In this document: one piece after another, positions 264 to 64,000 of the stretch
How the letters are laid out: every line of letters starts with the position of its first letter
Position numbering within the stretch: the stretch's first letter is position 1
Assembly (NCBI GenBank): GCA_963835905.1
Contig: CAWIHG010000005.1
Coordinates: forward strand, 1,396,018-1,460,017
Reading direction: 5' to 3'
DNA length: 64,000 nucleotides
Origin: an uncultured delta proteobacterium
GTDB lineage: Bacteria > Desulfobacterota > Binatia > Binatales > Binataceae
Notes under the pieces: model-generated
The model's database searches: none
Told to the model about the DNA's origin: nothing
Seen by the model: the letters and a program-made list of their open reading frames with translations, nothing else
Translations under genes and position numbers: made by a program

Positions 264-1513
264 GTCTCGAGTCCGAAGTAATCGGGATGCTGGTGCGGGC
301 GCGCGAGGCGGCGCACACGATCGCGCTCGCCTCCAGCGATCGAAAGAATGATGTACTGAAGTCGCTGGCCGCGCGCCTGCGCGCGGCGCGCGCTGAGATT
401 ATCGCGGCAAATCGCAAGGACCTGGAATCCGCGCATGCCGACGGCCGCGCCGGCGCATTCCTGGAGCGCCTTAAGCTCGACGACGACCGTATCGAGGCGA
501 TGGCGCGCGGGGTCGAGGAAGTCGCGCTGCTGCCCGACCCGGTCGGCCGCGAGATCGAGCGATGGCGCCGGCCCAACGGACTGGAGATTTCGAAAATCCG
601 CGTTCCGATCGGCCTGATCGCGATTATCTACGAGTCGCGTCCCAACGTCACCGTCGATGCGGGCGTGCTGTGCCTCAAGTCGGGCAATGCGACCGTGCTC
701 CGCGGCGGACGCGAGGCGATCCGCGCCAACGCGTGCCTGGCGGGACTGATCGGGCGCGCGCTCGAAGACACCGGACTTTCCGCCGCCTGCGCCACGTTCA
801 TCGAAAATCCCGATCGCGAGACGATCCAGATCATGAAGCGGCATCCCGAGCTGATCGACCTGATCATCCCGCGCGGCGGCAATGCGCTGAAAGAAGCGCT
901 GGCTGAATCATCGGTGCCGCTGCTGCCGCATTTCGACGGTCGCTGCCATACCTACGTCGATCGCGCGGCGAATCTCAAGATGGCCGAGGAAATCTGCATG
1001 AACGCGAAGTGCAGCCGGCCCTCGGTGTGCAACGCGATGGAAACGATGCTGGTGCATTCGGCGGTCGCCGAGAGATTCCTGCCCGCGGTCGGTGCGCGGA
1101 TGAAAGCGGCGGGAGTGGAGATTCGCGGCGACGACCGCGTGCGCAAAATCCTGCGCGGCGCGCGTCCGGCCACCGAACAGGACTGGGACACCGAATACCT
1201 GGACCTGATCCTGTCGGTGAAAATCGTCGATTCGGTGGAAGAAGCGATCGCGTTTATCGAGCGCCACGGATCGCATCTCGCCGACGCTATCGTGACCGAG
1301 GATCGCATCGCCGCCGCACGCTTTGAACGCGAAGTCGATTCGGCTACGGTCTACGTCAACGCGTCGACGCGCTTCACCGACGGTTTCGAGTTCGGTTTCG
1401 GCGCGGAAACGGGAATCTCGACCAACCGCCTTCACGCCCGGGGACCGATGGGGTTGGCTGAGCTGACTACCTACAAGTACGTGATTCACGGCGGCGGCCA
1501 GGTCCGTGGCTGA
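260..1513 (+). CDS. proA: Gamma-glutamyl phosphate reductase
   Basis: Starts MSLESEVIGML. ALDH-fold ProA family throughout, e.g. IPRGGNALKEAL and VYVNASTRFTDGFEFGFGAETGIST. It sits inside listed ORF 80..1513, whose N-terminal extension is spurious. Confidence 0.9.
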   Translation: MSLESEVIGMLVRAREAAHTIALASSDRKNDVLKSLAARLRAARAEIIAANRKDLESAHADGRAGAFLERLKLDDDRIEAMARGVEEVALLPDPVGREIERWRRPNGLEISKIRVPIGLIAIIYESRPNVTVDAGVLCLKSGNATVLRGGREAIRANACLAGLIGRALEDTGLSAACATFIENPDRETIQIMKRHPELIDLIIPRGGNALKEALAESSVPLLPHFDGRCHTYVDRAANLKMAEEICMNAKCSRPSVCNAMETMLVHSAVAERFLPAVGARMKAAGVEIRGDDRVRKILRGARPATEQDWDTEYLDLILSVKIVDSVEEAIAFIERHGSHLADAIVTEDRIAAARFEREVDSATVYVNASTRFTDGFEFGFGAETGISTNRLHARGPMGLAELTTYKYVIHGGGQVRG

Positions 1514-1539
1514 CCCGGCGCCCAGGACGAATTCAAGCG

Positions 1540-2178
1540 ATGCGAGTGGGGTTGTTCGGGGGGAGCTTCAATCCGATCCACTTCGGCCACCTGCGCTCCG
1601 CCGAAGAGGATCGCGAGGCGCTCGCCCTCGACCTGATTTACTTCATCCCGGCCGCGTCGCCTCCGCACAAAGTCGAGGGCGAGCTTGCCCCCGCCGAGCA
1701 TCGGCTCCAGATGACGCGGCTGGGGGCCAAGGGAAACCGCCATTTCATGGTGTCGGACGTGGAGATCCGGCGCACCGGACGCTCCTACACGATCGAGACG
1801 GTGCGGTTTTTTCTACAAACCCTGCGCCAACCTTCGACCCTGTACCTGCTTATGGGCGCTGACCAGTTCGCCGAGCTGGATACCTGGCGGGAGTGTGACG
1901 CGCTGGTGAAGGAAGCCAACCTCGCGGTCCACTCGCGCGCGCCACAGGGGGAATCGGCGGCGGGAAAAGTCTCGCTTGCCGCGATCAAACGCTTTGGCTA
2001 CATTAGGGAAGACGATCACTACGTTAATCAGAGCGGCAAGACGCTTTCATTCGTCAACACCACGATCTTTCCGATTTCAGCCACGGCGATCCGCCAGAAG
2101 CTCCAGCACGGGCAGTCGATCAATTACCTGCTCCCGACTGACGTGCTCGATTACATCACCCGCCACTCACTGTATTGA
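1540..2178 (+). CDS. nadD: Nicotinate-nucleotide adenylyltransferase
   Basis: MRVGLFGGSFNPIHFGHL with the HxGH-type motif, 212 aa. The proA-nadD-rsfS order is conserved. Confidence 0.85.
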   Translation: MRVGLFGGSFNPIHFGHLRSAEEDREALALDLIYFIPAASPPHKVEGELAPAEHRLQMTRLGAKGNRHFMVSDVEIRRTGRSYTIETVRFFLQTLRQPSTLYLLMGADQFAELDTWRECDALVKEANLAVHSRAPQGESAAGKVSLAAIKRFGYIREDDHYVNQSGKTLSFVNTTIFPISATAIRQKLQHGQSINYLLPTDVLDYITRHSLY

Positions 2179-5585: not shown

Positions 5586-6392
5586 TTACCTCCTGGATGC
5601 TGCCGCGCGATGGCGGACGCGGCGTCCGGCGCCCGTGGCGCGGACCGTTTTCGGACCGCCGCAAAGGAGCGCAAAACGCCGCGCAAGTCTCCGTTCGAGA
5701 CCGAGCCCCTCCGCCAGCGGCAGGTCCACTCCACCCCACACCGCGAGCTTGACCAGAGCGGACTGCTCGCGCGGGAGGCGGCCGAGCTCGCGCGCGATCT
5801 CCAGCGCGCGCCGCTCGAGGCCGGCCCGCGGGACGACTTCGGCGACCAAACCTACAAGTAACGCGTCGTGCGCGTCAATCCAACGTCCGGTGATGCACAA
5901 ATCCAGCGCTCGGCCCAGGCCGAGCCGGCGCGAGGCGGTCTGGGTGCCGGCCACTCCGGGGATCATACCGGTCCCGGTCTCGGGAAGGCTGAGCCGGGTA
6001 TCGTCGGCGGCAATCGCGACGTCGCACAGCAGCGCCATCTCGAGTCCCCCGCCGACTGTAAAGCCGTGAATCGCAGCGACCGTGGGAATCGGCAGCGCCT
6101 TTAGCCGGCCCCACACATCGCGCCGGAACCGGACCCATCGCGCGACTATCGGAGAGGGCGCCGAGCCGAATTCGTGCAGATCGCCCCCGGTAGAGAACGC
6201 CTTGCCCGCGCCGCAGAGGACCATCGCGCGAACCTCGGGGTCCTCATGAACCGCGCTCAGGATCGCGAATAGATCGTCGCGCATCGCGACGTTGTAGGCA
6301 TTTAGCTGGTCGGGTCGGTTGAGCGTCACCCAGGCGACCGCCCCGCGTTTGCGGTAGATGACCGCGCCGTCAGCGTTGGCCGAGGTTGTCAT
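5586..6392 (-). CDS. Enoyl-CoA hydratase
   Basis: True start is MTTSANADGAVIYRKRGAVAWVTLNRPDQLNAYN, inside listed ORF 5586..6929. Crotonase fold. ATGA overlap with the upstream amidohydrolase stop. Confidence 0.8.
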   Translation of the reverse strand: MTTSANADGAVIYRKRGAVAWVTLNRPDQLNAYNVAMRDDLFAILSAVHEDPEVRAMVLCGAGKAFSTGGDLHEFGSAPSPIVARWVRFRRDVWGRLKALPIPTVAAIHGFTVGGGLEMALLCDVAIAADDTRLSLPETGTGMIPGVAGTQTASRRLGLGRALDLCITGRWIDAHDALLVGLVAEVVPRAGLERRALEIARELGRLPREQSALVKLAVWGGVDLPLAEGLGLERRLARRFALLCGGPKTVRATGAGRRVRHRAAASRR

Positions 6393-7945
6393 GCGGAATG
6401 CAGGTCGGCGCTGTCGCTCCACGCGATCGCGGGGCGTCCGCGCTCGTACACGACCTTGCCGTCGATAATCGTGATATCCACGGCCAGCGCGGCAAGCTCG
6501 GCCGGCTCCAGCCCGGACAGATCGCGCGGGAGCACGACCAGGTCCGCGAGCATCTCGGGTTCGATCGCGCCGGCCTCGATCCGCGCCAGCCGCGCGCCAT
6601 CGCGCGTGAACATCGCGAGCGCATCGGCGGGCGCAAGCTGCTCGTCGGGCGCGAGCGTGTCGCCGTCGATCGTCTCGCGCGAGATGGCGGCCGCGATCGC
6701 GGCGAGCGGGCGCGCCGGCGTGACCGGCGCATCGGTCGCTCCGGCCAGCTCGATTCCCGCCGCGCGCAGGCTGCGCGCGCGATACAGGTAGGGCAGCAGG
6801 CCGGGCTCGCGCGCGTACTTGGGACCCCGAAAATGTACGAAGCCCGGATTGGTCACCACCCACGCGCCCATCGCCGCCAGTCGCTCGAGGTGCTCGGGCG
6901 TGATGACGCCGCCGTGCTCGATTCTGCACACCGCCGGCGTGCCGCGCTCGCCAATCTGGCGCATCGCGAGTTCGATCGCGCCCAGCGCTTCATCGAGTTC
7001 CTCGACCTCGGTTGCGTGGAACGCGCAATCAAGCCCGCTGGAGAGCCCGATTCGCACCCGCCGCGCCAGCGTCGAGTCCCCCGCCGCGGCGCCGGGCATG
7101 AACTTGAGGCCCGCCAGCCGCACGCGGTCGCCCGCGAATTTGGCGGCGGCGCCCGCGGCGTCGAGGTGATGCGCGCCGATCATGACGCCGACCCGCTGGC
7201 AAATCGATCTGGCAGCCGATAGCCGCGCGAACAGCTCCACCTCCTCGGCGCCGTTGCGCACGGTCGCATCGGTGAAGGCGGTGACGCCCGCGGCGGCAAG
7301 CTCGCGGCTCATGATTCGCGCGCGCGATTCCGTCTCGGCCTTGGTGACGAGTGGAAGCCTGGCGGTGATCTCCTGCTCCATTGCGGCGACCAGCCCGCTG
7401 AGTTTGCCCGCGCCGTCGTGCTCGACGGTCGCGCCGGCGGGCGGGCGGAAGCCGGGTTCTTCAAACCCGCACAGTTTGATCGCGCGCGAGTTCAGCCACG
7501 AGGCGTGGAGCGTCTGATGGCGCAGGCGCAGCGGGTTCTTCGGGACCGCCTGGTCGAGTTCCTCGCGGGTCGGCCCGCGCCCCTCGGCCAGCAGCGCCTC
7601 GTCGCATCCGAACGCGCGCAGCCAGTTGCCGGGCGGGGTCTTGCCGGCGGCCAGACGGAGGTCGGCCAGCAGATCCGCTAGCGAGCGGCATCGCGAGACG
7701 TTCAGCCCGGTGGCCGCGGCGGCGCTTTCAAAAAAATGGAGATGCGAATCGATAAATCCCGGCGCGACGGTGCGGCCAGAGAGTTTGACCAGATGGGTCC
7801 GCGGTCCGACCAGCGCCTTGAGCTCGGTGAACGGGCCGTGCGCGATAATCCTGCCGCCGGTTATCGCGACCGAATCGCTTCCGGGATGACCGTGAACGGC
7901 TCCCTCGTGGAGAACGAGGTCGGCCTTGGCGGACGGGTTTGCCAC
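6389..7945 (-). CDS. Amidohydrolase-family metal-dependent hydrolase
   Basis: Motifs GFIDSHLHF and HATEVEE are typical of the amidohydrolase superfamily. Start assigned to GTG at 7945 (VANPSAKADLVLHEGAV); the longer listed ORF extension looks spurious. Confidence 0.7.
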   Translation of the reverse strand: MANPSAKADLVLHEGAVHGHPGSDSVAITGGRIIAHGPFTELKALVGPRTHLVKLSGRTVAPGFIDSHLHFFESAAAATGLNVSRCRSLADLLADLRLAAGKTPPGNWLRAFGCDEALLAEGRGPTREELDQAVPKNPLRLRHQTLHASWLNSRAIKLCGFEEPGFRPPAGATVEHDGAGKLSGLVAAMEQEITARLPLVTKAETESRARIMSRELAAAGVTAFTDATVRNGAEEVELFARLSAARSICQRVGVMIGAHHLDAAGAAAKFAGDRVRLAGLKFMPGAAAGDSTLARRVRIGLSSGLDCAFHATEVEELDEALGAIELAMRQIGERGTPAVCRIEHGGVITPEHLERLAAMGAWVVTNPGFVHFRGPKYAREPGLLPYLYRARSLRAAGIELAGATDAPVTPARPLAAIAAAISRETIDGDTLAPDEQLAPADALAMFTRDGARLARIEAGAIEPEMLADLVVLPRDLSGLEPAELAALAVDITIIDGKVVYERGRPAIAWSDSADLHSA

Positions 7946-7998: not shown

Positions 7999-8142
7999 TC
8001 AGTCGGAGGACGGCAGCGGCTTGGCCTCCTTGATCTTCATCTCGCCTTCGCAGCACTCGATCGAGCCGGTACCGGCCTTGTTGCACAGCACCTCGGTGCC
8101 GCACTTTTCGCATTGATAGCGTTTGCCCAGAGTGTTTGCCAT
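7999..8142 (-). CDS. Desulforedoxin-like small Fe(Cys)4 protein, second copy (47 aa, not in the ORF track)
   Basis: Translation MANTLGKRYQCEKCGTEVLCNKAGTGSIECCEGEMKIKEAKPLPSSD has the same CxxC...CC pattern as the 3102..3221 gene. Confidence 0.65.
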   Translation of the reverse strand: MANTLGKRYQCEKCGTEVLCNKAGTGSIECCEGEMKIKEAKPLPSSD

Positions 8143-8217
8143 TTTGATTTCTCCCCTGTCATGGTCCGCACGGACGGCTTTCGCCGCCGGAGCGGAAATA
8201 ATATATCGCTCAAAACC

Positions 8218-9231
8218 CTACTTGAAGGGTAGCTCTTCCACCCACGCGTCGATCGCGCCCGCCGGGTCCGCGATCGTGACGCGGGTGCCCGCCGCCCATG
8301 CGCTATGATGAACAGTCGCAAGCGCGATTCCACCCATCCGCGGCGAATTCGCGATACTGGTCGCGCGGCCGACTTCCTTGTCCGCCAGCATCACCGCGGC
8401 TGCGCGCGCCGGCATCCGCGCCGCATCGAACCTGAGACCCATCAGGTGGCGCTTGAGCGCACCGCGCGCGGTTGCGCGCTCGATCGTCTCCTGCCCGACA
8501 TAGCATCCCTTGCTGAACGAAATTGCGCGCTCCATGCGCGCCTCCAGCGCGATTGTCTTGTCGCCGGTATCGACGCCCACCAACGCGAGCCCGCGCTCGA
8601 TTCGAATGGCGTCGAGCGCCGCGGCGCCGACCCGGCGGAACGCCGGGTCGGAGGCGAGAATCCGGCCAATGGCGGATTCAAGTTCTCCGCGCGTACCGAT
8701 CATCGAAAATGCGGGCCCGCCGAGCCGCGGAAGATTCGCAACCATCAGCGAGCCCGCGCGGACGAACCGCCACTGGGCGATGGTGGCGGGCGCGTCGCCC
8801 ATTGCGGCAGTAATCGCGTCCGCCGCGCGCGGCCCTTCAATATCCACGACCGCGAGATCGGAATCGGTCTCGAACTCGACGTCATCAGCGACCAGCAGGC
8901 GTTCCAGATGCTCGCGCGCGCGCCGCCACAGGGTCGTATCGGCGTCGATCAGTACCGCATCGGGCGCAACCCACATGAAGCAGTCCGCGATCACGTGCGC
9001 ATGCTCGGTCAGGAACATCGCGGGCACCACCGCGCCTGGCGCGGCGCCCTTGACGTCGTTGCTGCACATCCCGTGGAGAAACGACACCCGGTCCTCGCCT
9101 ACGACGCGGACGACGCACCGGCCGGGAAGCTCGAGCACGCCGGCCGCATCGGTAATGGCGGCGTAATCGGCGCCAAAATTCGGCGAGCCTGCGGCCGCAG
9201 CCGAAGCATCAATCTGTTGAGAATCTTCCAT
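8218..9231 (-). CDS. Folate-binding protein YgfZ / aminomethyltransferase-fold (GcvT-like)
   Basis: GcvT/YgfZ-type signature. Start taken at MEDSQQ (9231); an alternative ATG lies at 9267. Confidence 0.65.
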   Translation of the reverse strand: MEDSQQIDASAAAAGSPNFGADYAAITDAAGVLELPGRCVVRVVGEDRVSFLHGMCSNDVKGAAPGAVVPAMFLTEHAHVIADCFMWVAPDAVLIDADTTLWRRAREHLERLLVADDVEFETDSDLAVVDIEGPRAADAITAAMGDAPATIAQWRFVRAGSLMVANLPRLGGPAFSMIGTRGELESAIGRILASDPAFRRVGAAALDAIRIERGLALVGVDTGDKTIALEARMERAISFSKGCYVGQETIERATARGALKRHLMGLRFDAARMPARAAAVMLADKEVGRATSIANSPRMGGIALATVHHSAWAAGTRVTIADPAGAIDAWVEELPFK

Positions 9232-18134: not shown

Positions 18135-19105
18135 TTAGGGGCTGGGAGCCGCCGGTCCTGCTATTCCGGGGGCACCTGCAGCACCTTGAAAGAGCATTGA
18201 ATCTATAAGCCCGTCTTCAACGATTGCGACGGTGGCGCCCACGGCCATTCCGAGGAGCACACCTATCGCGATACCGGGCAGGCCCCCGATCTCACCAATG
18301 GCGGCGCCGATTTCGGCAAACTCCTCGATGTCTAGAGGTATCAGTGCGGCGCGGGCGAAGAGCTGCCCAGTCGAGGGCTGAATGCCAGAAAGGCTGCCGG
18401 GTGCGCCGACGCTCGGTCCCGACACAGCGGCCATCTCGCCTGCCCCGATGCCCGCGTCTGCCTCGGCAACGCCAAGCGGGGAGTTGGCTCCGGATTGCGC
18501 GGCTTCGTATGCAGCGATCTGGCCCGCAGTATCATTCTCAGATGAATCGCCTCCTGAACCGCCGCCTCCAGTAGCCGAGTTGTTTCCGCCTGCACCTCCA
18601 GCGCCGGGGCCCGAGTGGACCCACTCCCAACCGTTAAAGGTTTTCACGGCAGCCCACGCGTCGTCGGCCGATCCTCCGCCGCGACCCGTGGGGTCTGTGA
18701 GCTTCGTCGGAGCGTCCCCGACATACGCGAAGAAATTGGGCTGGCCGCCGCCGAGTCCCAGCGGGTCGGACGAGATGAAGCGGCTGCGAGGCGCGCCCGA
18801 GCAGCCGTCCTGAGCCGCCCGGCGAAGGACCCCCACAGCGGATTGTAATAGCGCGCGCGCATGAAGTAGAGCCCGCTTTGATCCAACTCGCGCCCCGCAA
18901 ACGCGTAAGGATTCGTCGTCGATGCGCCGCTGGTCGAGGTCTTGCCGAACGGCTCATACGTGTCTTGGGTGGCCAGACTTCCGCCCGAGTTCACGAGCCC
19001 GATCGTACTGCCGAGCGCGTCGCGCAGCAACGCCACGCTTCCCGTGGAATCGGTGCTCGCAATTTCATCATGCGGTGACAGAACTGAGGAGCCTTGGTCG
19101 AGCAT
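18135..19105 (-). pseudogene. Orphan rhs C-terminal tip 2 with Gly-rich toxin domain (frameshifted)
   Basis: Frame 1 gives STDSTGSVALLRDALGSTIGLVNSGGSLATQDTYEPFGKTSTSGASTTNPYAFAGRELDQSGLYFMRARYYNPLWGSF. A frame switch then gives RFISSDPLGLGGGQPNFFAYVGDAPTKLTDPTGR plus a ~190-aa Gly-rich domain ending in a glycine-zipper helix GLPGIAIGVLLGMAVGATVAIV. Confidence 0.6.
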
Positions 19106-19920: not shown

Positions 19921-20900
19921 GCTCCGGACAGACTCAGGCCGTTGGGTGCTTGCATCATAGGGGCATCCGGCCGCTCAAGGCTCGCTGCGTTCAGAATGGC
20001 CCGCGCCGCAGAACCGAGTGTCGAGCAACCGGAATAGAATGAGGCCTGCGTCGTGGTGTTCGGCACGAAATCCAGATTCGAGTAACTCGGCAAATTCATC
20101 ACGGGCGGGAGATGAATGCGCGGATCTCCAAATATATATATCGCGAGTTTTCCGAGTAACGTAAAGAATACTCCTCCAAAACCCAGAATATACTTGGGCT
20201 TCGGCTTCGGCGTTGGCGTTGGTTTCGGCTTCTGCTTTTGCTTTGGCGCTGGCGGAGGAGGATCGGGTGGTGTCGGAGGCGGGCCGGGGCTGCCGCCCCA
20301 CACTTCGCCCGTTGGATCGACGAAGTTCATCGGGCTGTTGCCGACATACGCGAAGAAATTCACCTGGCCGCCGCCGAGACCGAGCGGATCTTGCGAGATA
20401 AAGCGGCTGAGCAAGGGATTGTAGTACCTCGCGCGCATGAAATAGAGCCCGGATGCGTCCAGCTCGCGCCCCGCGAACGCATACGGATTCGTCGTCGAAG
20501 ACCCGCTGCGCGAGGTCTTCCCGAACGGCTCGTATCCGTAACTCGTCGCGATGCTGCCGCCCGAGTTCACGAACCCAATCGTACTGCCGAGCGCGTCGCG
20601 CAGCAACGCCACCGCTCCCGCTGGAATCCGTGCTCGCAAACCAGTCATCGAGCCACAGCCCCGACAGAATGTCGATATTCCCGCTCATCGAGGACTGCAC
20701 CTGGACGGCGTTAAGCCCGTCGTAAACGTAGTTGTCTATCGTTGTCCCGGTATTCTGATGGACCCGCCGCCCCATCGCGTCGGACCGCTCGAATGGCAGC
20801 GTGTCAACCAGAAGCCGATGCGGTGTGTTTTCGCGCACGTGTACTCCGTAGTGAGAAGTGCTATAGTAATTCGGGATGGATATGAGGTTGCACAGGCGAA
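19911..20900 (-). pseudogene. Orphan rhs C-terminal tip 1: RHS core end + Pro/Lys-rich linker + small C-terminal toxin (one +1 frameshift)
   Basis: ...YVYDGLNAVQVQSSMSGNIDILSGLWLDDWFASTDSSGS, then a frameshift (one inserted g), then AVALLRDALGSTIGFVNSGGSIATSYGYEPFGKTSRSGSSTTNPYAFAGRELDASGLYFMRARYYNPLLSRFISQDPLGLGGGQVNFFAYVGNSPMNFVDPTGE. Followed by PPPTPPDPPPPAPKQKQKPKPTPTPKPKPK and a ~110-aa low-GC toxin with a hydrophobic helix YILGFGGVFFTLLGKLAIYIFG. Confidence 0.6.
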
Positions 20901-25184: not shown

Positions 25185-25345
25185 TCGCAGGCGGCCGGGC
25201 TTGGGCGGGCTTCTTGAAAGCCACGCTTATACTTCGGCCTCAGCTGGACGCGATAAATCAAGCGGCGCAGCGCTGATCAGCGCTGCGCCGCTTTTCCTTG
25301 GAGTTATGATTCTGCCGGCCCGGGCGCTTTGCCCGCGGCCGTGAA

Positions 25346-58672: not shown

Positions 58673-59530
58673 CTACCCCGTTTCAGTAGACAGAGTTGGG
58701 CTTGTGCGGAATTCCGCTGGATGGCTCCTTTGGTAGTTGATAGGCGAGAGATAGTCGAGGGCCGAATGGCGGCGGTGAGGTTTGTACCAACCTTCGATAA
58801 AATCGAACACCGCCATCCGCGCCTGGGCCTGGGTTCTGAAGTTTTGTCGGTTGAGCAGCTCGGATTCGAGAGTGGCGAAGAAGCTCTCGCACATGGCGTT
58901 GTCAAAACAGTCGCCCACCGAACCCATCGAGGGCCGCCCCCGGCCTGTTCGCAACGCTTCCGAAGGCGACCGACGTATATTGGCTGCCTTGGTCGGAATG
59001 ATGGATCACGCCGGCGGGACGGCGCTGTACCAGCGCCATGTCAAGGTCTTTGAGTACCAGCTCGGTACGCAGATAAGTCTTCATCGCCCAACCCACTATC
59101 CGGCGGCTGAAGACGTCGAGCACCACGGCCAGATAGAGAAGGCCGGCCCAGGTTGGAATGTAGGTGATGTCGGCCACCACAAACGGTTGGGCGCCGCGGC
59201 GGTGAAGTTGCGTTCGACCAGGTCGGGCGCCGGCCGGGCGGCGCGATCACGCACCGTAGTGATGATCCAGTTGCACCACCCCCGGATCACGGTCCGGGGG
59301 CCGGCTGCGCGCATCAATCGCGCCACGCGTTTGATGCCCGCCCTAATGCCTTGCTCCGCGAGGTCGACAGGGATGCGCGGCGCGCCATAGGTCCGGCGCG
59401 AGCGACGATGGATCTCGGCGATCCGCGCGCTCAACTCGGCGTCCGCGCGAGCTCGTGCCGAGGGCGGACGCTTGAGCCGCGCGTAATAGCCACCGGGGGA
59501 GACCGCCCAGTACGCGGCACCTGGTGGCAA
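58673..59530 (-). mobile_element. IS3-family transposase (orfB) remnant, fragmented over three frames
   Basis: ORFs 59096..59530, 58902..59180 and 58673..58954 together give ...RRTYGAPRIPVDLAEQGIRAGIKRVARLMRAAG.../...VADITYIPTWAGLLYLAVVLDVFSRRIVGWAM...IHHSDQGSQYTSVAF.../...DNAMCESFFATLESELLNRQNF...ARMAVFDFIEGWYKPHRRHSALDYLSP. That is a DDE transposase with frameshifts. No orfA was found. Confidence 0.7.
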
Positions 59531-59919: not shown

Positions 59920-61267
59920 TCAGGCGGTGGCGTCATTTTCGCGGCCGGTGAACTGATATGGATTGGTGCTCGATGCGCGCGACGCCGTCGTGTTCCCGAA
60001 CGGTTCGTAGGTGTATGAAGTCTGAATTGCTCCTGCGGAATCCGCGAGCGCCAGCGTGCTTCCGAGCGTATCGGTCAGGAAGTCGCGACTGCCGGCGGAG
60101 TCGGTCCTCTGAAAGTACTCGTCGATGTTCAGCCCGGTGAGTAGATTTGCCGACGGGCTCCCGGACTGGATTTCCTGCACTGGATTCAGGCCGTCATACA
60201 GGAACTGGGTCGTGGTTCCTGCAATAGTTTTGCTGACCCGCCGGCCGAGCGCGTCGTACCCGAAGCTGGCCGTCACCGCACCGCTGATCCCAACCAAATG
60301 ATTGCGCGCATCCCAGCTATAGGTGTTGCTGCCATCGTTGGTCAGGTTTCCATTCGCATCATAGGTCATCACGGTCCCGTTGAACGAAGTCATCTCGTTG
60401 TCCGCGTTGAACGTGTTCCCCGTCACCGCTTGCGGCAGATTCGTCTCCGCCATGCTGCCCGTCTTCTCGATGACGCGCCCGTCGGCATCATAGCTGTATT
60501 CCAGGTCGCCGATCTGGTTGCCCGCCAGCGTCCAGGTCATCCCGCTCACCCGCGAGTCGGCGTTCCTTTGGCGCAGAGGGCCCCTCTCGCTGCCCCTTCG
60601 CTTTCGCTCAGGGCTGCGGCTCCAATCGGGCGCCGAAGCGGCGGCTCAGGACAGGCTCCACTATATGTCACCACTATCCCATTGGGCAGCGTGAGCTGCG
60701 TCCTTCGATTGGCGTTGTCATATTGGAACGCAACCGAGCCGGTTCCCTGCGTAACTCCTGTCAATCGGTTCGCATTGTCCCACGTGTACGAGACCTGCGT
60801 CTGCCCCGCCACCGTCAGCGTCGCCCGCCGGTTCGCGTTGTCGTAGCTGTAGCTCACCTCGCCCAGCGGGGTCTGCTCGTCGGTCAAACGATCGAGACCG
60901 TCATAGGTCCGCGCGATCGTCCCGGCGATCGAGTCCGTCGCTCCGGTGAGGCGATTTCCGCCGTCCCACGTATAGCTGATTGAGCTCTGATATCCGCTGC
61001 CGTTGTAGCCATAGCCCGCGAAGGTGCGGCGGTTGAGGCCATCGTAGCTGTATTTCGTGATGTTTCCATCGCGATCGGTGTGCTGGGTCAGGTTTCCGTT
61101 ACCGTCATAGGAATAGTTCTCGACTGCATTCAGCGCGTCTGTGCGCGAACTCCGGCGGTCCATGTTGTCGTACGTGTACCTGGTCTGGTTCGCGTTGGCG
61201 TCGGTGACTGAAGTGAGGTCGCCGCCGGTATAGCTGAAGTGGACCGTAGCGCCCGCCGCGTTGTTGA
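59920..61267 (-). pseudogene. rhs-family YD-repeat protein, internal fragment (no start, C-terminus truncated, internal frame break)
   Basis: YD repeats: YSYDGNGNLTQHTDRDGNITKYSYDGLNRRT, YTWDNANRLTGV, FQYDNANRRTQLTLPNGIVVTY. A frame break near 60550-60662 is followed by EYSYDADGRVIEKTG...YDANGNLTNDG...YDALGRRVSKT...YEPFGNTTASRASSTNPYQFTGRENDATA, then a stop exactly where RHS cores continue (GLYY.RARYY). There is an upstream in-frame stop at 61268-61270 and no Met. Confidence 0.65.
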
Positions 61268-61322
61268 GTTAGGCGACCTGACCCTCGGAATCTTGGTCTA
61301 AGATTGCAAAGCGCTAGCGGTT

Positions 61323-61340
61323 ACACGTTGTTAACAACGT
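61323..61340. promoter_or_regulatory. Perfect 18-bp palindrome CACGTTGTTAACAACGTG
   Basis: Seen in sequence in the 480-bp non-coding stretch between the rhs fragment and the tRNA-like element. Candidate binding site for a dimeric protein (repressor or recombinase). Confidence 0.4.
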
Positions 61341-61625
61341 GCCATTGATGTGGAAGCGCCTCACGAGGCCTTGTGGTGTTGGACGAAACCCTCCGCAGCC
61401 GATAGTCCCGCCCGGCCAAGAATCTTGCACGGAATCTCGATGAGACTATGCGCGGGGTTCGCCTGAGGGTGGGGACTTTTGTGGTGACCCTCGATCGATT
61501 TCCGTATGATTCGGTATCGCTCGTGAGCTCGACGCGAGAGTTTGAAGACCCTTGGCGCCGTTGGGTTTGATGCATATCGAGGGTCACGGGGTCACGGAAT
61601 GATACCTGCGAAAACCGCCCTGCTA

Positions 61626-61673
61626 TGCTGGAAGTGCGTGTGGTCGCCGGTTCAAATCCGGCCGCCCCGACCA
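61626..61673 (+). repeat. tRNA 3'-end-like element (T-arm + acceptor 3' strand + CCA), copy 1
   Basis: gccgg-TTCAAAT-ccggc T-arm, followed by cgccccg-a-CCA. The upstream sequence does not fold into D or anticodon arms and no complementary 5' acceptor strand is present, so this is not a complete tRNA. Confidence 0.5.
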
Positions 61674-61749
61674 ATCGAATTGCCGAACCCGCGACTCCGA
61701 AGCTATCTTCGTTAGTCCCAACGACTGAAACGTCGAGGAGATTTGCGCC

Positions 61750-62625
61750 ATGAGCGTTCACCGAGAGGATTTCAGCTTCCTGAGTCCGGACGGGATTACA
61801 ATCGCGTGCTACCGATGGCCCGCCGCGGGACGCGCGACCGGCGCCGTGCAGATCGCGCACGGACTCGGCGAGCATTCGCTGCGCTACGCGCGCGCGGCGG
61901 AGTTCCTCAATCGCGCGGGCTACGTGGTGTACGCCAACGACCATCGCGGGCACGGCCGCTCGGCGCCGAACCGCGAATCGCTCGGAGATTTCGGCGCGCG
62001 CGGATGGGACGGGCTGGTCGAGGACATGGCGCGGCTGACCGGGATCATCCGCGAGCGCGAGGGCGCGATTCCGATCGTCCTATTCGGCCACAGCATGGGA
62101 TCGTTCGCCGCCCAGCAGTATCTGCTCGATCACAGCGCGCTCATCGCGGCCGCCGTGCTGTCGGGATCGGCGGCGGTCGATTTCCTGGTCCGCCCGCGCG
62201 GGGACGCACCGCAGGGGCTCGAGACCATGAACCGCGATCTACCCAATCCGCGCACACCGTTTGATTGGCTGAGCCGCGATCCCGACGAGGTCGACAAGTA
62301 CATCGCGGACCCGCTATGCGGCTTCAACATGTCCGAGCGCGCGCGCGAATCGTCGGCGGTGTCGCTTGCGCGCGCAATCGATCCGGCGCAACTCTCGCGC
62401 ATCCGCAAGGACCTGCCGATTTACATCTTCGCGGGCGACGCCGATCCGCTGAACAACCATCTCGAGCATCTGCGCCCGGTCGCCGAGCGTTACCGCGCCG
62501 CGGGAGTCCGCGACGTGACCGAGCGCTACTACTTGGGCGGACGGCACGAGATGCTCAACGAGACCAATCGCGACGAGGTGCTCGCCGATTTGCTCGCATG
62601 GATCCGCCGCGCGCTGACGCCGTGA
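61750..62625 (+). CDS. Alpha/beta hydrolase (lysophospholipase / monoglyceride-lipase-like)
   Basis: HGLGEHSLRY..., nucleophile elbow GHSMGS, and a C-terminal catalytic His region. Confidence 0.8.
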   Translation: MSVHREDFSFLSPDGITIACYRWPAAGRATGAVQIAHGLGEHSLRYARAAEFLNRAGYVVYANDHRGHGRSAPNRESLGDFGARGWDGLVEDMARLTGIIREREGAIPIVLFGHSMGSFAAQQYLLDHSALIAAAVLSGSAAVDFLVRPRGDAPQGLETMNRDLPNPRTPFDWLSRDPDEVDKYIADPLCGFNMSERARESSAVSLARAIDPAQLSRIRKDLPIYIFAGDADPLNNHLEHLRPVAERYRAAGVRDVTERYYLGGRHEMLNETNRDEVLADLLAWIRRALTP

Positions 62626-62790
62626 GCGGATCTCTGAACTGTGCCCAATTTGGTACCCACCGTTGATTACAATCGGTATCCCTGATGAGCTAGCGACCAA
62701 CTTCCTCAAGTGCGCGGAAGGCTAGGGAGACAGGCGCTTGATTGCTGCCGGCTGACGGAAGCTGGTACCGGCTTTTTGCCGCAGTTTATG

Positions 62791-62837
62791 CTTCGGGTGC
62801 GTGTGGTCTCCGGTTAAAATTCGGCCACTCCGACCAA
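62791..62837 (+). repeat. Degenerate second copy of the tRNA 3'-end-like element (direct repeat of 61626..61673)
   Basis: cttcgggtgcgtgtggtctccggttaaaattcggccactccgacca is ~80% identical to copy 1 (tgctggaagtgcgtgtggtcgccggttcaaatccggccgccccgacca). Together they bracket the alpha/beta hydrolase gene. Confidence 0.45.
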
Positions 62838-63032
62838 ATCTGAATCTCCCCCGATAGCTCACGCCCGCCGACGCCGCGACCGCTGATCGCAATCATAGCT
62901 GCGATTCAATCTGGTTCCGGGAAGATGACAAGCTGACTGCGTAAATTTACGCATCGAGCGTTCAGTAGATTCACGAATTGACGGCCGACTACCGATTTGA
63001 ATGAATCTTTAAGATTGAGCGGTCTTGGAGAA

Positions 63033-64000
63033 ATGGCAATGACACAGTTCGGGCGTGTCCGTGAATTCGCTTTTATCCTTGGTCTGAGTGTTCTCTGCGT
63101 CGCGCTCCCACGCGCGATTGCCGGCGAAACGCCGGGCAATGCGCGCAATCCAGCGCAGGCAAACTATTCTTTCGCAAAGCTGCCGCTCGCGTTCGAACCA
63201 AACCTGGGACAAGCGCCGCAGCCGGTCAAATTTATCTCACGAGCCCGCGGTGGAACCCTGTTTCTGACTTCGACCGGCGCGACCTTCGCAGTGACCCGGC
63301 GCCACATCCCCAACGTCAACGCGACCATTTCCGGCGTGAGTGCGAACGCCGGGGCGGGAACTCCAGTTGCGCGGCCTGTGGTGGAGAGCCACGCGATGCG
63401 GATCAGCTTTTCCGGCGCAAATCGAAACGCGGCCAGCGAAGGCCTCGACCGGCTTCCGGGCGTCACCAATTACTTTGTGGGAAAAGAACCCGGCAAATGG
63501 CACACCGGAATTCCGAACTATGCCCGGGCGCGCTTCCATCGGATTTACCGCGGGATCGATCTGGTGTTTTACGGGACTGGCAACGGATTCGAATACGACT
63601 TCGTGGTCGCTCCCGGTGCGCATCCAGGCGACATTTGCTTGCGCCTCGAGGGCACGGACAAGGCCGAGTTAAACCGCAATGGCGATCTGATCATCAGCTT
63701 CGGGGGTGAGCGTCTGTCGCTCCGCAAGCCCGTCCTATACCAGCAAGTGAATCACCACCGAAGGGATATCCGAGGTGCGTTCGTAAAGGTTGCCAAATCG
63801 ACTTACAGAATCCGGGTAGGGAAATACGATCGAAAGGTTCCGCTGGTGATCGATCCTGCGCTGGTATGGGCTTCATATGTGGGTGGCGACTTTCTCGACG
63901 TTCCGTACCGCGTCGCCAACGACGCATCGAGTAATCCCTATTTTACCGGACTGACCTGCTCCTCGAATTTCCCGGAACCAACCATCGGGTCGGCGATGGG
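63033..64000 (+). CDS. SBBP/beta-propeller-repeat secreted protein (5' part; continues beyond window)
   Basis: RBS ggag precedes ATG. Signal peptide, then the YSFAKLPLAFEPNLGQAPQPVKFISRARGGTLFLTSTGATFAV start typical of this family in Acidobacteria and delta-proteobacteria. No stop before the window end. Confidence 0.55.
   Translation, partial: MAMTQFGRVREFAFILGLSVLCVALPRAIAGETPGNARNPAQANYSFAKLPLAFEPNLGQAPQPVKFISRARGGTLFLTSTGATFAVTRRHIPNVNATISGVSANAGAGTPVARPVVESHAMRISFSGANRNAASEGLDRLPGVTNYFVGKEPGKWHTGIPNYARARFHRIYRGIDLVFYGTGNGFEYDFVVAPGAHPGDICLRLEGTDKAELNRNGDLIISFGGERLSLRKPVLYQQVNHHRRDIRGAFVKVAKSTYRIRVGKYDRKVPLVIDPALVWASYVGGDFLDVPYRVANDASSNPYFTGLTCSSNFPEPTIGSAM

Follow-up and report, generated by a model that had tools for sequence, protein, structure and literature searches.

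Near the right end of a 64,000-nucleotide stretch of DNA from an uncultured delta proteobacterium of the family Binataceae (hereafter, the window; positions 1,396,018 to 1,460,017 of the forward strand of contig CAWIHG010000005.1, GenBank assembly GCA_963835905.1), two short direct repeats that resemble the 3' ends of tRNA genes bracket a single gene for an alpha/beta hydrolase. The question raised by this locus is whether the hydrolase is the cargo of a small integrated element delimited by the repeats or a resident gene next to which mobile elements have left their traces. A preliminary description made from the sequence interpreted the repeats as the left and right attachment scars (attL and attR) of integrase-mediated insertion into the 3' end of a gene for a tRNA or a transfer-messenger RNA (tmRNA), and the interval between them as a decayed islet or the remnant of serial integration. 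The analysis presented here points to a different assignment of the parts: with a probability of about 80%, both repeats are attR-type scars of a family of genomic islands of Binataceae that target the tRNA-Pro(GGG) gene and insert in its anticodon loop, and the hydrolase is native to the locus.

The repeats span 51 nt each (61624-61674 and 62787-62837), are 82% identical and are spaced by 1163 nt; the only matches to a degenerate 22-nt pattern spanning both repeats in the 64 kb are these two sites, against a chance expectation of 0.03. Copy 1 (61624-61673 from the anticodon loop to the CCA, plus strand) consists of TATGC, which resembles a strand of an anticodon stem, the loop TGGAAGT, the segments GCGTG and TGGTC, the T arm GCCGG-TTCAAAT-CCGGC, the acceptor strand CGCCCCG, an A and the terminal CCA. 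Copy 2 (62787-62837, plus strand) is a decayed counterpart, with the loop TTCGGGT, the T arm TCCGG-TTAAAAT-TCGGC and the acceptor strand CACTCCG. Because of the C1-G72/A73 type of the acceptor end, and by their sequence itself, the repeats are identified as parts of tRNA-Pro. The 40 nt of copy 1 from 61634 to 61673 are identical to dozens of intact tRNA-Pro(GGG) genes of Binataceae, and copy 2 matches the intact gene in 36 of the last 40 positions, with four changes. The substitutions in copy 1 are confined to the anticodon stem and loop (TATGC-TGGAAGT versus TACGC-TTGGGGT in the family), where there are four in 12 nt, compared to none in the following 40 nt. The loop of copy 2 is altered as well, and neither of the two loops, which are not alike, retains the wild-type sequence TTGGGGT. 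The crossover can be placed within the anticodon stem-loop, given that identity to the tRNA begins at position ~28 in the family and at position 37 in copy 1.

The architecture originally noted, with a T arm, an acceptor 3' strand and a CCA but no matching 5' half, is borne out: ARAGORN called no tRNA and no tmRNA in the whole window, including the interval 61590-61673 where a complete gene would make copy 1 a normal tRNA. We also considered a full-length tRNA, intact or degenerate, at 61587-61673, where CGGGGTC could pair with the 3' strand of the acceptor stem; this candidate was ruled out by a D region that is 10 nt too long and unlike that of a tRNA, by the negative ARAGORN result and by the alignment of this segment with the island arms described below. 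Assignment of copy 2 to tRNA-Pro(CGG) was rejected too, given that its arm and stem fit the GGG family and its loop is one base off TTGGGGT. As a target, tmRNA has to be abandoned in favor of tRNA-Pro(GGG). At the gathering thresholds of Rfam, there is no match, and the permissive match to the tmRNA model (RF00023; 61554-61673) scores 22.6 bits compared to the gathering threshold of 47, with 294 of the 374 model positions deleted, so that it picks up the tRNA-like end alone. The fold z-scores of the region, -0.7 to -1.5, are no better than those of shuffled sequence, and a scan of the region for promoters and terminators revealed nothing resembling a promoter and no more terminator-like sites than expected from shuffled sequence. 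An independent Logan assembly of the window genome (contig L001), which extends the window to ~68,991, starts at window position 61647, that is, it breaks within the perfect 40-mer of copy 1, and reads through the diverged copy 2; this break fits the presence of the exact tRNA-Pro 3' sequence elsewhere in the sample, for example, in an intact gene.

Scanning the 40-mer of copy 1 across one genome per species yielded 99 stretches, nearly all of them in Binataceae and mostly belonging to intact tRNA-Pro(GGG) genes. Most of the 20 fragments detected outside the window are preceded by a conserved arm of ~170 nt, as are both copies in the window. On 10 contigs, the fragment is preceded, at a distance of 3.7-46 kb, by an intact tRNA-Pro gene in the same orientation, and in at least 12 loci, the intact tRNA gene is directly followed, on the opposite strand, by a gene for a 390-396-aa tyrosine recombinase (PF00589). 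The relatives of this protein comprise 432 protein clusters at E <= 1e-40 and are named in the sources only "site-specific integrase". The arm opens with a tandem repeat, e.g. ACTGTGGGGACTTTTGTGGGGAC, and is centred on an imperfect palindrome that is apparent from reverse-strand profile matches and from an inverted repeat in the first arm of the window. The same tandem repeat recurs ~65 nt beyond the CCA of the intact tRNA, within the region encoding the C-terminus of the integrase. The repeat motifs of the two sides (P and P') covary element by element, in GGGGA, CCCC and TAGGG versions, as would be expected of arm-type integrase-binding sites, a role that we putatively assign to them. On the attL sides, including that of locus L067 (3366-3392), the reverse complement of the P' repeat encodes a C-terminal SPQNPPQS-like motif; the repeat lies inside the integrase gene, and therefore the putative arm-binding site and the integrase tail share the same DNA.

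The cargo of these islands includes genes for an RHS protein, a Kelch beta-propeller, Abi_C and NOV_C proteins and a GNAT acetyltransferase, and the genes downstream of the fragments are mutually unrelated across the family. Locus L051 is an integrase-less array of one 3.6-kb island and two ~1-kb units that end in an arm and a fragment, with spacings of 978 and 1172 nt; by reading of its sequence, the GNAT gene lies beside a small antitoxin-like gene, and a HigA-like gene adjoins the intact tRNA. A single integrase-less island of 3.7 kb is present in L038/L039, and in L049, a gap of 1122 nt separates the intact tRNA from a fragment with an unrelated arm. Serial integration, one of the original suggestions, is typical of this island family, as illustrated by the L051 array.

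The arms of the window were detected with a profile built from other genomes, with no window sequence included; nhmmer matched it to arm 1 at 61455-61621 (E 1.6e-26) and to arm 2 at 62624-62749 (E 1.1e-4). Arm 1 (61455-61633, plus strand) begins with GGGTGGGGACTTTTGTGGTGAC, contains internal inverted repeats (61484-61495 and 61576-61587) and, in blastn searches, is 69-79% identical over ~126-212 nt to the arms of L081, L062, L028, L051, L004 and L092; it represents the P arm of attP in the GGGAC subclass. Arm 2 (62637-62796, plus strand), a decayed arm that begins with ACTGTGCCCAATTTGGTACCC 11 nt past the stop codon of the hydrolase, belongs to the CCC subclass and aligns with the arms of L044, L020, L037 and L073. 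The repeat motifs, TGGGGAC...TGGTGAC in arm 1 versus TGTGCCCAA...GGTACCC in arm 2, accordingly group each arm with different relatives. The adjacent stretch of 355 bp that had been described as non-coding does adjoin copy 1 but is not a plain spacer: ~170 nt of it are the conserved island-end arm. Thus, integrase-mediated insertion into a tRNA gene finds support in the arms of the family and in the integrases of the relatives, with tRNA-Pro(GGG) as the target, but the pairing of the two repeats as attL and attR does not hold: attL would be an intact tRNA, both copies consist of an arm and a fragment, and their loops (TGGAAGT versus TTCGGGT) and arm subclasses differ. No family integrase was detected in the window or in L001 (tblastn with three family integrases), nor do these sequences contain an intact tRNA gene; profile and motif scans of the window revealed neither a P' motif nor a third arm.

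The hydrolase gene (61750-62625, plus strand; Pfam Hydrolase_4, 291 aa) has orthologues with 90% identity in metagenome contigs of Binataceae. In one of these, L003, an intact tRNA-Pro(GGG) gene without an arm ends 76 nt ahead of the orthologous hydrolase, which is exactly the position of the end of copy 1, and the 76 nt that lead from the tRNA to the start of the hydrolase in the window (61674-61749, plus strand) are homologous to the spacer of L003. Colinearity of the window with L003, at 88% nucleotide identity, begins at 61634 and extends to the end of the hydrolase; the sequences to the left of this point are unrelated. Because of this match in position and the start of homology at 61634, copy 1 can be recognized as the 3' part of the resident tRNA-Pro(GGG) gene, which was broken within its anticodon loop, and as an attR-type junction at the native tRNA locus. 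An intact tRNA similar to the repeats is found in L003 at the orthologous site and in many genomes of Binataceae. Four contigs (L002, L003, L004 and L006) share the gene order hydrolase, bidirectional terminator, convergent luciferase-like gene (minus strand), abhydrolase gene (minus strand), PCMT and LysM/M23, with more genes in the longer contigs, and none of the four contains an arm or a tRNA fragment after the hydrolase. The nucleotide identity to these relatives is similar for both regions, 88-89% for the hydrolase and 90-93% for the luciferase-like gene. Given the conserved synteny in four contigs and the survival, past the neighboring DUF7948/SBBP gene, of the terminator together with a 19-nt copy of the hydrolase end, the hydrolase is most likely a native backbone neighbor of tRNA-Pro; that it is the cargo of a decayed islet is unlikely, considering that it is syntenic in close relatives and that its old 3' end is kept beyond an insertion of 5.5 kb. 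In other Binataceae, homologues of the hydrolase with 65-87% identity (L107-L110) are found in wholly different neighborhoods, with genes for a phosphoesterase, RND efflux or a dioxygenase, so that there are either several paralogues or a mobile gene.

The DNA to the right of the hydrolase is of a different nature. In L001, the ancestral terminator and the luciferase-like gene reappear after a block of ~5.5 kb that consists of 11 nt, arm 2, copy 2, 200 nt, the gene for a 1634-aa DUF7948/SBBP beta-propeller protein (Pfam; plus strand, starting at 63033 or 63039 and running off the window at 64000) and ~135 nt; copy 2 is an attR- or attP-like junction heading this strain-specific block. The GC content of third codon positions (GC3) is 0.65 in the SBBP gene versus 0.84 in the hydrolase gene, and the SBBP protein has no close homologues, with identities reaching 37% among JGI contigs and not exceeding 43% in the protein database. 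At either end of the block, there is one copy of a 19-nt direct repeat with the consensus GCGCTG(A/G)CGCCGTGAGCGG. The left copy, GCGCTGACGCCGTGAGCGG (62611-62629, plus strand), includes the stop codon of the hydrolase; the right copy, GCGCTGGCGCCGTGAGCGG (6428-6446 of L001, equivalent to ~68074-68092 of the window), lies beside the ancestral terminator, encodes ...ALAP-stop and occupies the position of the hydrolase stop of the relatives with respect to the terminator. No third arm or fragment was found downstream of the SBBP gene, even with filters off. Because the SBBP gene lacks close homologues and has a low GC3, and because of the flanking 19-nt repeat and the retained terminator, the block is most likely a later insertion at the 3' end of the hydrolase, which belongs to the backbone.

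A pseudo-attB role of the 19-nt repeat was considered and rejected: in a by-eye comparison, 9 of the 19 positions match the att core, and a crossover in the core would not produce an insert of this geometry. Between copy 2 and the SBBP gene, ~80 nt upstream of the start, there is a perfect 16-nt palindrome with an AT-rich centre, TGCGTAAATTTACGCA (62938-62953), which, judging by its letters, appears operator-like. Right after the SBBP gene, L001 contains a strong 13-bp hairpin, GACCGCGTGACGG...CCGTCACGCGGTC (6358-6395, ~68004-68041 in window-equivalent positions), followed by CGGTAT...AGCGG, which bears a faint likeness to the middle of an arm, with a nil score against the arm profile.

These observations suggest the following scenario. 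The islands would integrate into the anticodon loop of tRNA-Pro(GGG) by means of the 390-396-aa tyrosine integrase, and their attP would comprise a P arm of ~170 nt, with a tandem repeat of the TGTGGGGAC-TTT-TGTGGGGAC type at its start and a long imperfect palindrome inside, a duplicate of the tRNA from position ~28 to position 76, a P' arm in which this repeat recurs ~65 nt beyond the CCA, and the integrase gene. On integration, an intact tRNA gene would be restored on the left side of the island, and the right end would keep the P arm and the displaced 3' part of the tRNA, which is the structure of each copy in the window. The partner of copy 1, that is, the intact tRNA with the integrase and the P' arm, would have become detached from it through a deletion or a rearrangement, the left part of this first island having presumably been lost or moved. 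Copy 2 is an older, decayed module of another arm subclass, located at the left end of the ~5.5-kb block; it would have come in as a passenger on the SBBP block, without a canonical crossover at its present position. In tyrosine recombinases, mismatched overlap sequences should block strand exchange. Given that the anticodon-loop overlaps of the two sites differ from each other and from the wild type, and that there is no integrase nearby, both sites are most likely inert scars, with the hydrolase fixed between them.

Several observations weigh against the interpretation of both repeats as attR-type scars around a native gene. The 61.6 kb upstream of copy 1 contain no intact tRNA-Pro, no integrase and no native upstream flank (adh_short, PanK), and the attL partner is assumed rather than seen. 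The acceptor strand of copy 1 is CGCCCCG, whereas the tRNA of the nearest relatives (L002, L003 and L004) has CACCCCG, the variant ancestral to copy 2; these variants fit copy 2 as the native fragment and copy 1 as a fragment brought by an element. Furthermore, a canonical crossover would separate arm 2 from copy 2 and cannot yield an insert that begins with both; as the origin of the block, we weighed an aberrant excision, a duplication with subsequent deletion, and an insertion of the Campbell type via the 19-mer, and none of these is simple. Finally, the unit from copy 1 to copy 2, at 1163 nt, is close in size to the mini-islands of L051 (978 and 1172 nt) and to the gap of L049 (1122 nt).

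The acceptor variants and the size of the unit are accommodated by an alternative in which the hydrolase is cargo after all. The 1163-nt unit (copy 1, the 76-nt leader, the hydrolase and arm 2) would represent a mini-island of cis-mobilizable type, without an integrase, that entered tRNA-Pro, with copy 2 as the native 3' part and the SBBP block as the native flank, and the island of arm 1 would have been added later in front of it. The ~1-kb units of L051, which end in an arm and a fragment, and the L049 locus, despite its unrelated arm, offer parallels; copy 2 is more decayed, so older, and derives from the CACCCCG variant that is native in the closest relatives, with copy 1 representing the other variant; and the neighbors of the hydrolase are wholly different in more distant Binataceae. 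Nevertheless, this alternative appears unlikely: the hydrolase, the terminator and the luciferase-like gene are contiguous in four related contigs, with no arm or fragment, the tRNA ahead of the hydrolase in L003 is intact and armless, a 19-nt duplicate of the hydrolase end, stop codon included, persists in its ancestral place beside the terminator, no third arm or fragment follows the SBBP gene, and that gene is an orphan of low GC3, unlike a native flank. A still bolder, improbable generalization is that the tRNA-Pro(GGG) locus of Binataceae is a cassette-accretion site, to which integrase-less units of ~1 kb, usually with one or two genes each and ending in a conserved att module of ~220 nt with element-specific TGTG-repeat arm sites, would be added, and perhaps shuffled, in trans by the family integrase; native genes like the hydrolase could be "captured" between modules. 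If true, such accretion would resemble integrons in assembling arrays of genes for defence, toxins and surface proteins next to a tRNA, and the clustering of core mutations in both copies would reflect selection for immobilisation or be its by-product.

Two further explanations were considered. Copy 2 could be a local segmental duplicate of the module of copy 1, produced by replication slippage or unequal crossing-over; the TACGC to TATGC change is indeed common to both copies, and weak similarity reaches ~115 nt upstream in the same register. However, the arms belong to different element-specific subclasses, each grouping with different relatives, the acceptor variants differ, and the identity outside the tRNA part is ~50%, which makes such an origin very improbable. 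Hardly credible at all is the possibility that the segments are functional tRNA-like or tmRNA-like RNAs, such as 5'-leader structures or a split tmRNA, instead of recombination scars. Each copy lies upstream of a gene on the same strand, and the sub-threshold tmRNA match at 61554-61673 (22.6 versus 47 bits) could be taken as a hint in this direction, but ARAGORN and Rfam at its gathering thresholds are negative, the acceptor strand is of the tRNA-Pro type (C1-G72, A73) and the sequence is that of a real tRNA-Pro 3' part, folding is unremarkable (z from -0.7 to -1.5), the T arm and acceptor strand of copy 2 are decayed, and the genes downstream of the fragments in the family are mutually unrelated. 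We therefore favor the interpretation of both repeats as scars of tRNA-Pro(GGG) islands on the two sides of a native hydrolase.

Other loci with tRNA-Pro sequences present variations of their own. The arms in L049 and L093 are not of the family type. In a 100-kb viral contig (L115; IMG/VR UViG_3300037852_000186), the tRNA-Pro 3' 40-mer occurs at 8503-8542 on the minus strand, next to an unrelated left arm and without an intact tRNA; this site probably represents attP in another element, perhaps a phage, with the same tRNA-Pro target. Two compensated acceptor variants are about equally frequent across Binataceae. The intact tRNA-Pro of L064 (~1506-1582, minus strand) combines the 5' acceptor strand CGGGGTG with the 3' strand CGCCCCG, which results in a T6-G67 wobble; such a hybrid acceptor is what integration of an island that brings its own 3' half would be expected to produce. 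L002 contains a second, diverged tRNA-Pro(GGG) (8080-8156), 4.5 kb downstream of the normal copy, with an A3-C70 mismatch, a weakened T stem and no family arm, and this gene may be a decaying duplicate delivered by another element.

The region to the left of arm 1 consists, in this order, of 185 nt with a palindrome, an rhs fragment, a broken IS3 element, and genes for a membrane protein, an NHL-repeat protein and Tad pseudopilins; the rhs, hydrolase and SBBP genes flanking the repeats are as stated in the preliminary description. The rhs fragment (59920-61270, minus strand; Pfam RHS_repeat at 59920-61163) is truncated at the N-terminus. In a tblastn search, the RHS protein of another island of the family matches 59980-61262, and the fragment probably represents cargo of the island whose remnant terminates at arm 1. 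The adjacent IS3-family transposase remains (58673-59530, minus strand) comprise three open reading frames with HTH_21 and rve_3/rve_2 domains; abutting the truncated rhs, they form a graveyard of mobile DNA immediately to the left of arm 1. From ~51 kb downwards, the window contains ordinary genes of acyl-CoA and central metabolism (34-51 kb), with the usual GC content of the genome, which rules out the entire upstream part of the window as a single island of >61 kb. Farther away, the segment 14000-22000 has a lower GC content (57-61% versus ~65%), RHS-core-like matches (18824-19036 and 20307-20612) and genes for an FHA-domain protein and an Rce1-like protease; this block may be a second rhs or toxin island.

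The perfect 18-nt palindrome reported previously, CACGTTGTTAACAACGTG, does exist, but is located one base to the right of the original coordinates, at 61324-61341, within the 185 nt that separate the rhs fragment from arm 1, and is not part of the conserved att architecture, being outside the conserved arm and present in none of the other loci compared, family members included. It has no T tract and a fold z-score of -1.07, no better than shuffled sequence. The only other perfect palindrome of at least 18 nt in the window, GCAGCGCTGATCAGCGCTGC (25268-25285), is the centre of a classical intrinsic terminator with a longer GC stem followed by TTTTCC.

The repeats thus turn from an isolated sequence feature into a mapped recombination hot spot, where acquired DNA, namely the rhs/IS3 remnant on the left and the SBBP block on the right, breaks up the native sequence (the tRNA 3' part, the hydrolase, the terminator and the luciferase-like gene). 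For annotation, they serve as a warning that the tRNA-Pro(GGG) gene is broken at this locus. The definition of the family, with its ~430 integrase clusters, the ~170-nt arm and the covarying P and P' repeats, can be used to delimit islands and their cargo in genome bins of Binataceae. In addition, the family offers a natural integrase/att pair for Binatia, a group without genetic tools.

Among the known systems, pSAM2 of Streptomyces ambofaciens is an integrative, self-transmissible element in which the att identity segment covers a tRNA-Pro gene between its anticodon loop and its 3' end. The Binataceae family has the same type of target, a tRNA-Pro gene, and the same extent of att, from the anticodon loop to the CCA (~49-58 nt), although the hosts belong to unrelated phyla and, unlike in the self-transmissible pSAM2, the cargo of the Binataceae elements is of the RHS, Kelch/SBBP, toxin-antitoxin and Abi types, with no conjugation genes among the parts examined. 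On a broader scale, the Islander collection contains 3919 islands, 2083 of them with anticodon-centred sites and 3760 with 3' fragments (PMC4383910). In these tRNA-gene islands and in the Binataceae family alike, the tRNA is split and restored by the island's own 3' copy, the displaced 3' fragment lies in direct orientation at the far end, and the integrase is encoded beside the regenerated tRNA. Of the features by which Islander recognizes islands, a tRNA 3' fragment matching the cognate tRNA and a known crossover class, the anticodon loop, are present in the window, whereas the intact cognate tRNA and the tyrosine integrase are found neither in the 64 kb nor in L001. Similarly, of the family features, the ~170-nt P arm is present 5' of each fragment, and the P' repeat and the integrase are missing from the other end. 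The window therefore differs from the Islander islands in consisting of two displaced-fragment ends alone, and no island would be called by that approach.

An analogy to the integrase-less loci is provided by the cis-mobilizable elements (CIMEs) related to ICESt1 and ICESt3, which, as outlined in PMC5357655 (after Pavlovic 2004 and Bellanger 2011), are decayed, integrase-less islands between att sites that take part in accretion via resident attL and attR sites. CIMEs and the Binataceae loci are alike in forming integrase-less, att-flanked arrays near the site of related integrases, as in L051, in L038/L039 and, formally, in the hydrolase unit, which is flanked by two att modules and has no integrase. 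The hydrolase unit is set apart from the CIMEs by a native gene between its att modules, syntenic with the backbone in four relatives, and by cores that are heterologous to each other; given this heterology of the cores, mobilization of the unit in trans seems unlikely from the sequences. PMC9897764 deals with tRNA gene fragments that are mis-called as tRNA genes in prokaryotic annotation; like those fragments, the copies in the window are partial, non-functional 3' pieces of a tRNA, but ARAGORN and Rfam correctly leave them uncalled. In the literature searched, we found no description of a tRNA-Pro(GGG) island family of Binataceae with the ~170-nt arm and the TGTG repeats. The arrangement around the hydrolase is an ordinary consequence, in an uncultivated lineage, of island traffic targeted to tRNA genes, and conforms to the established biology of tRNA-borne islands.

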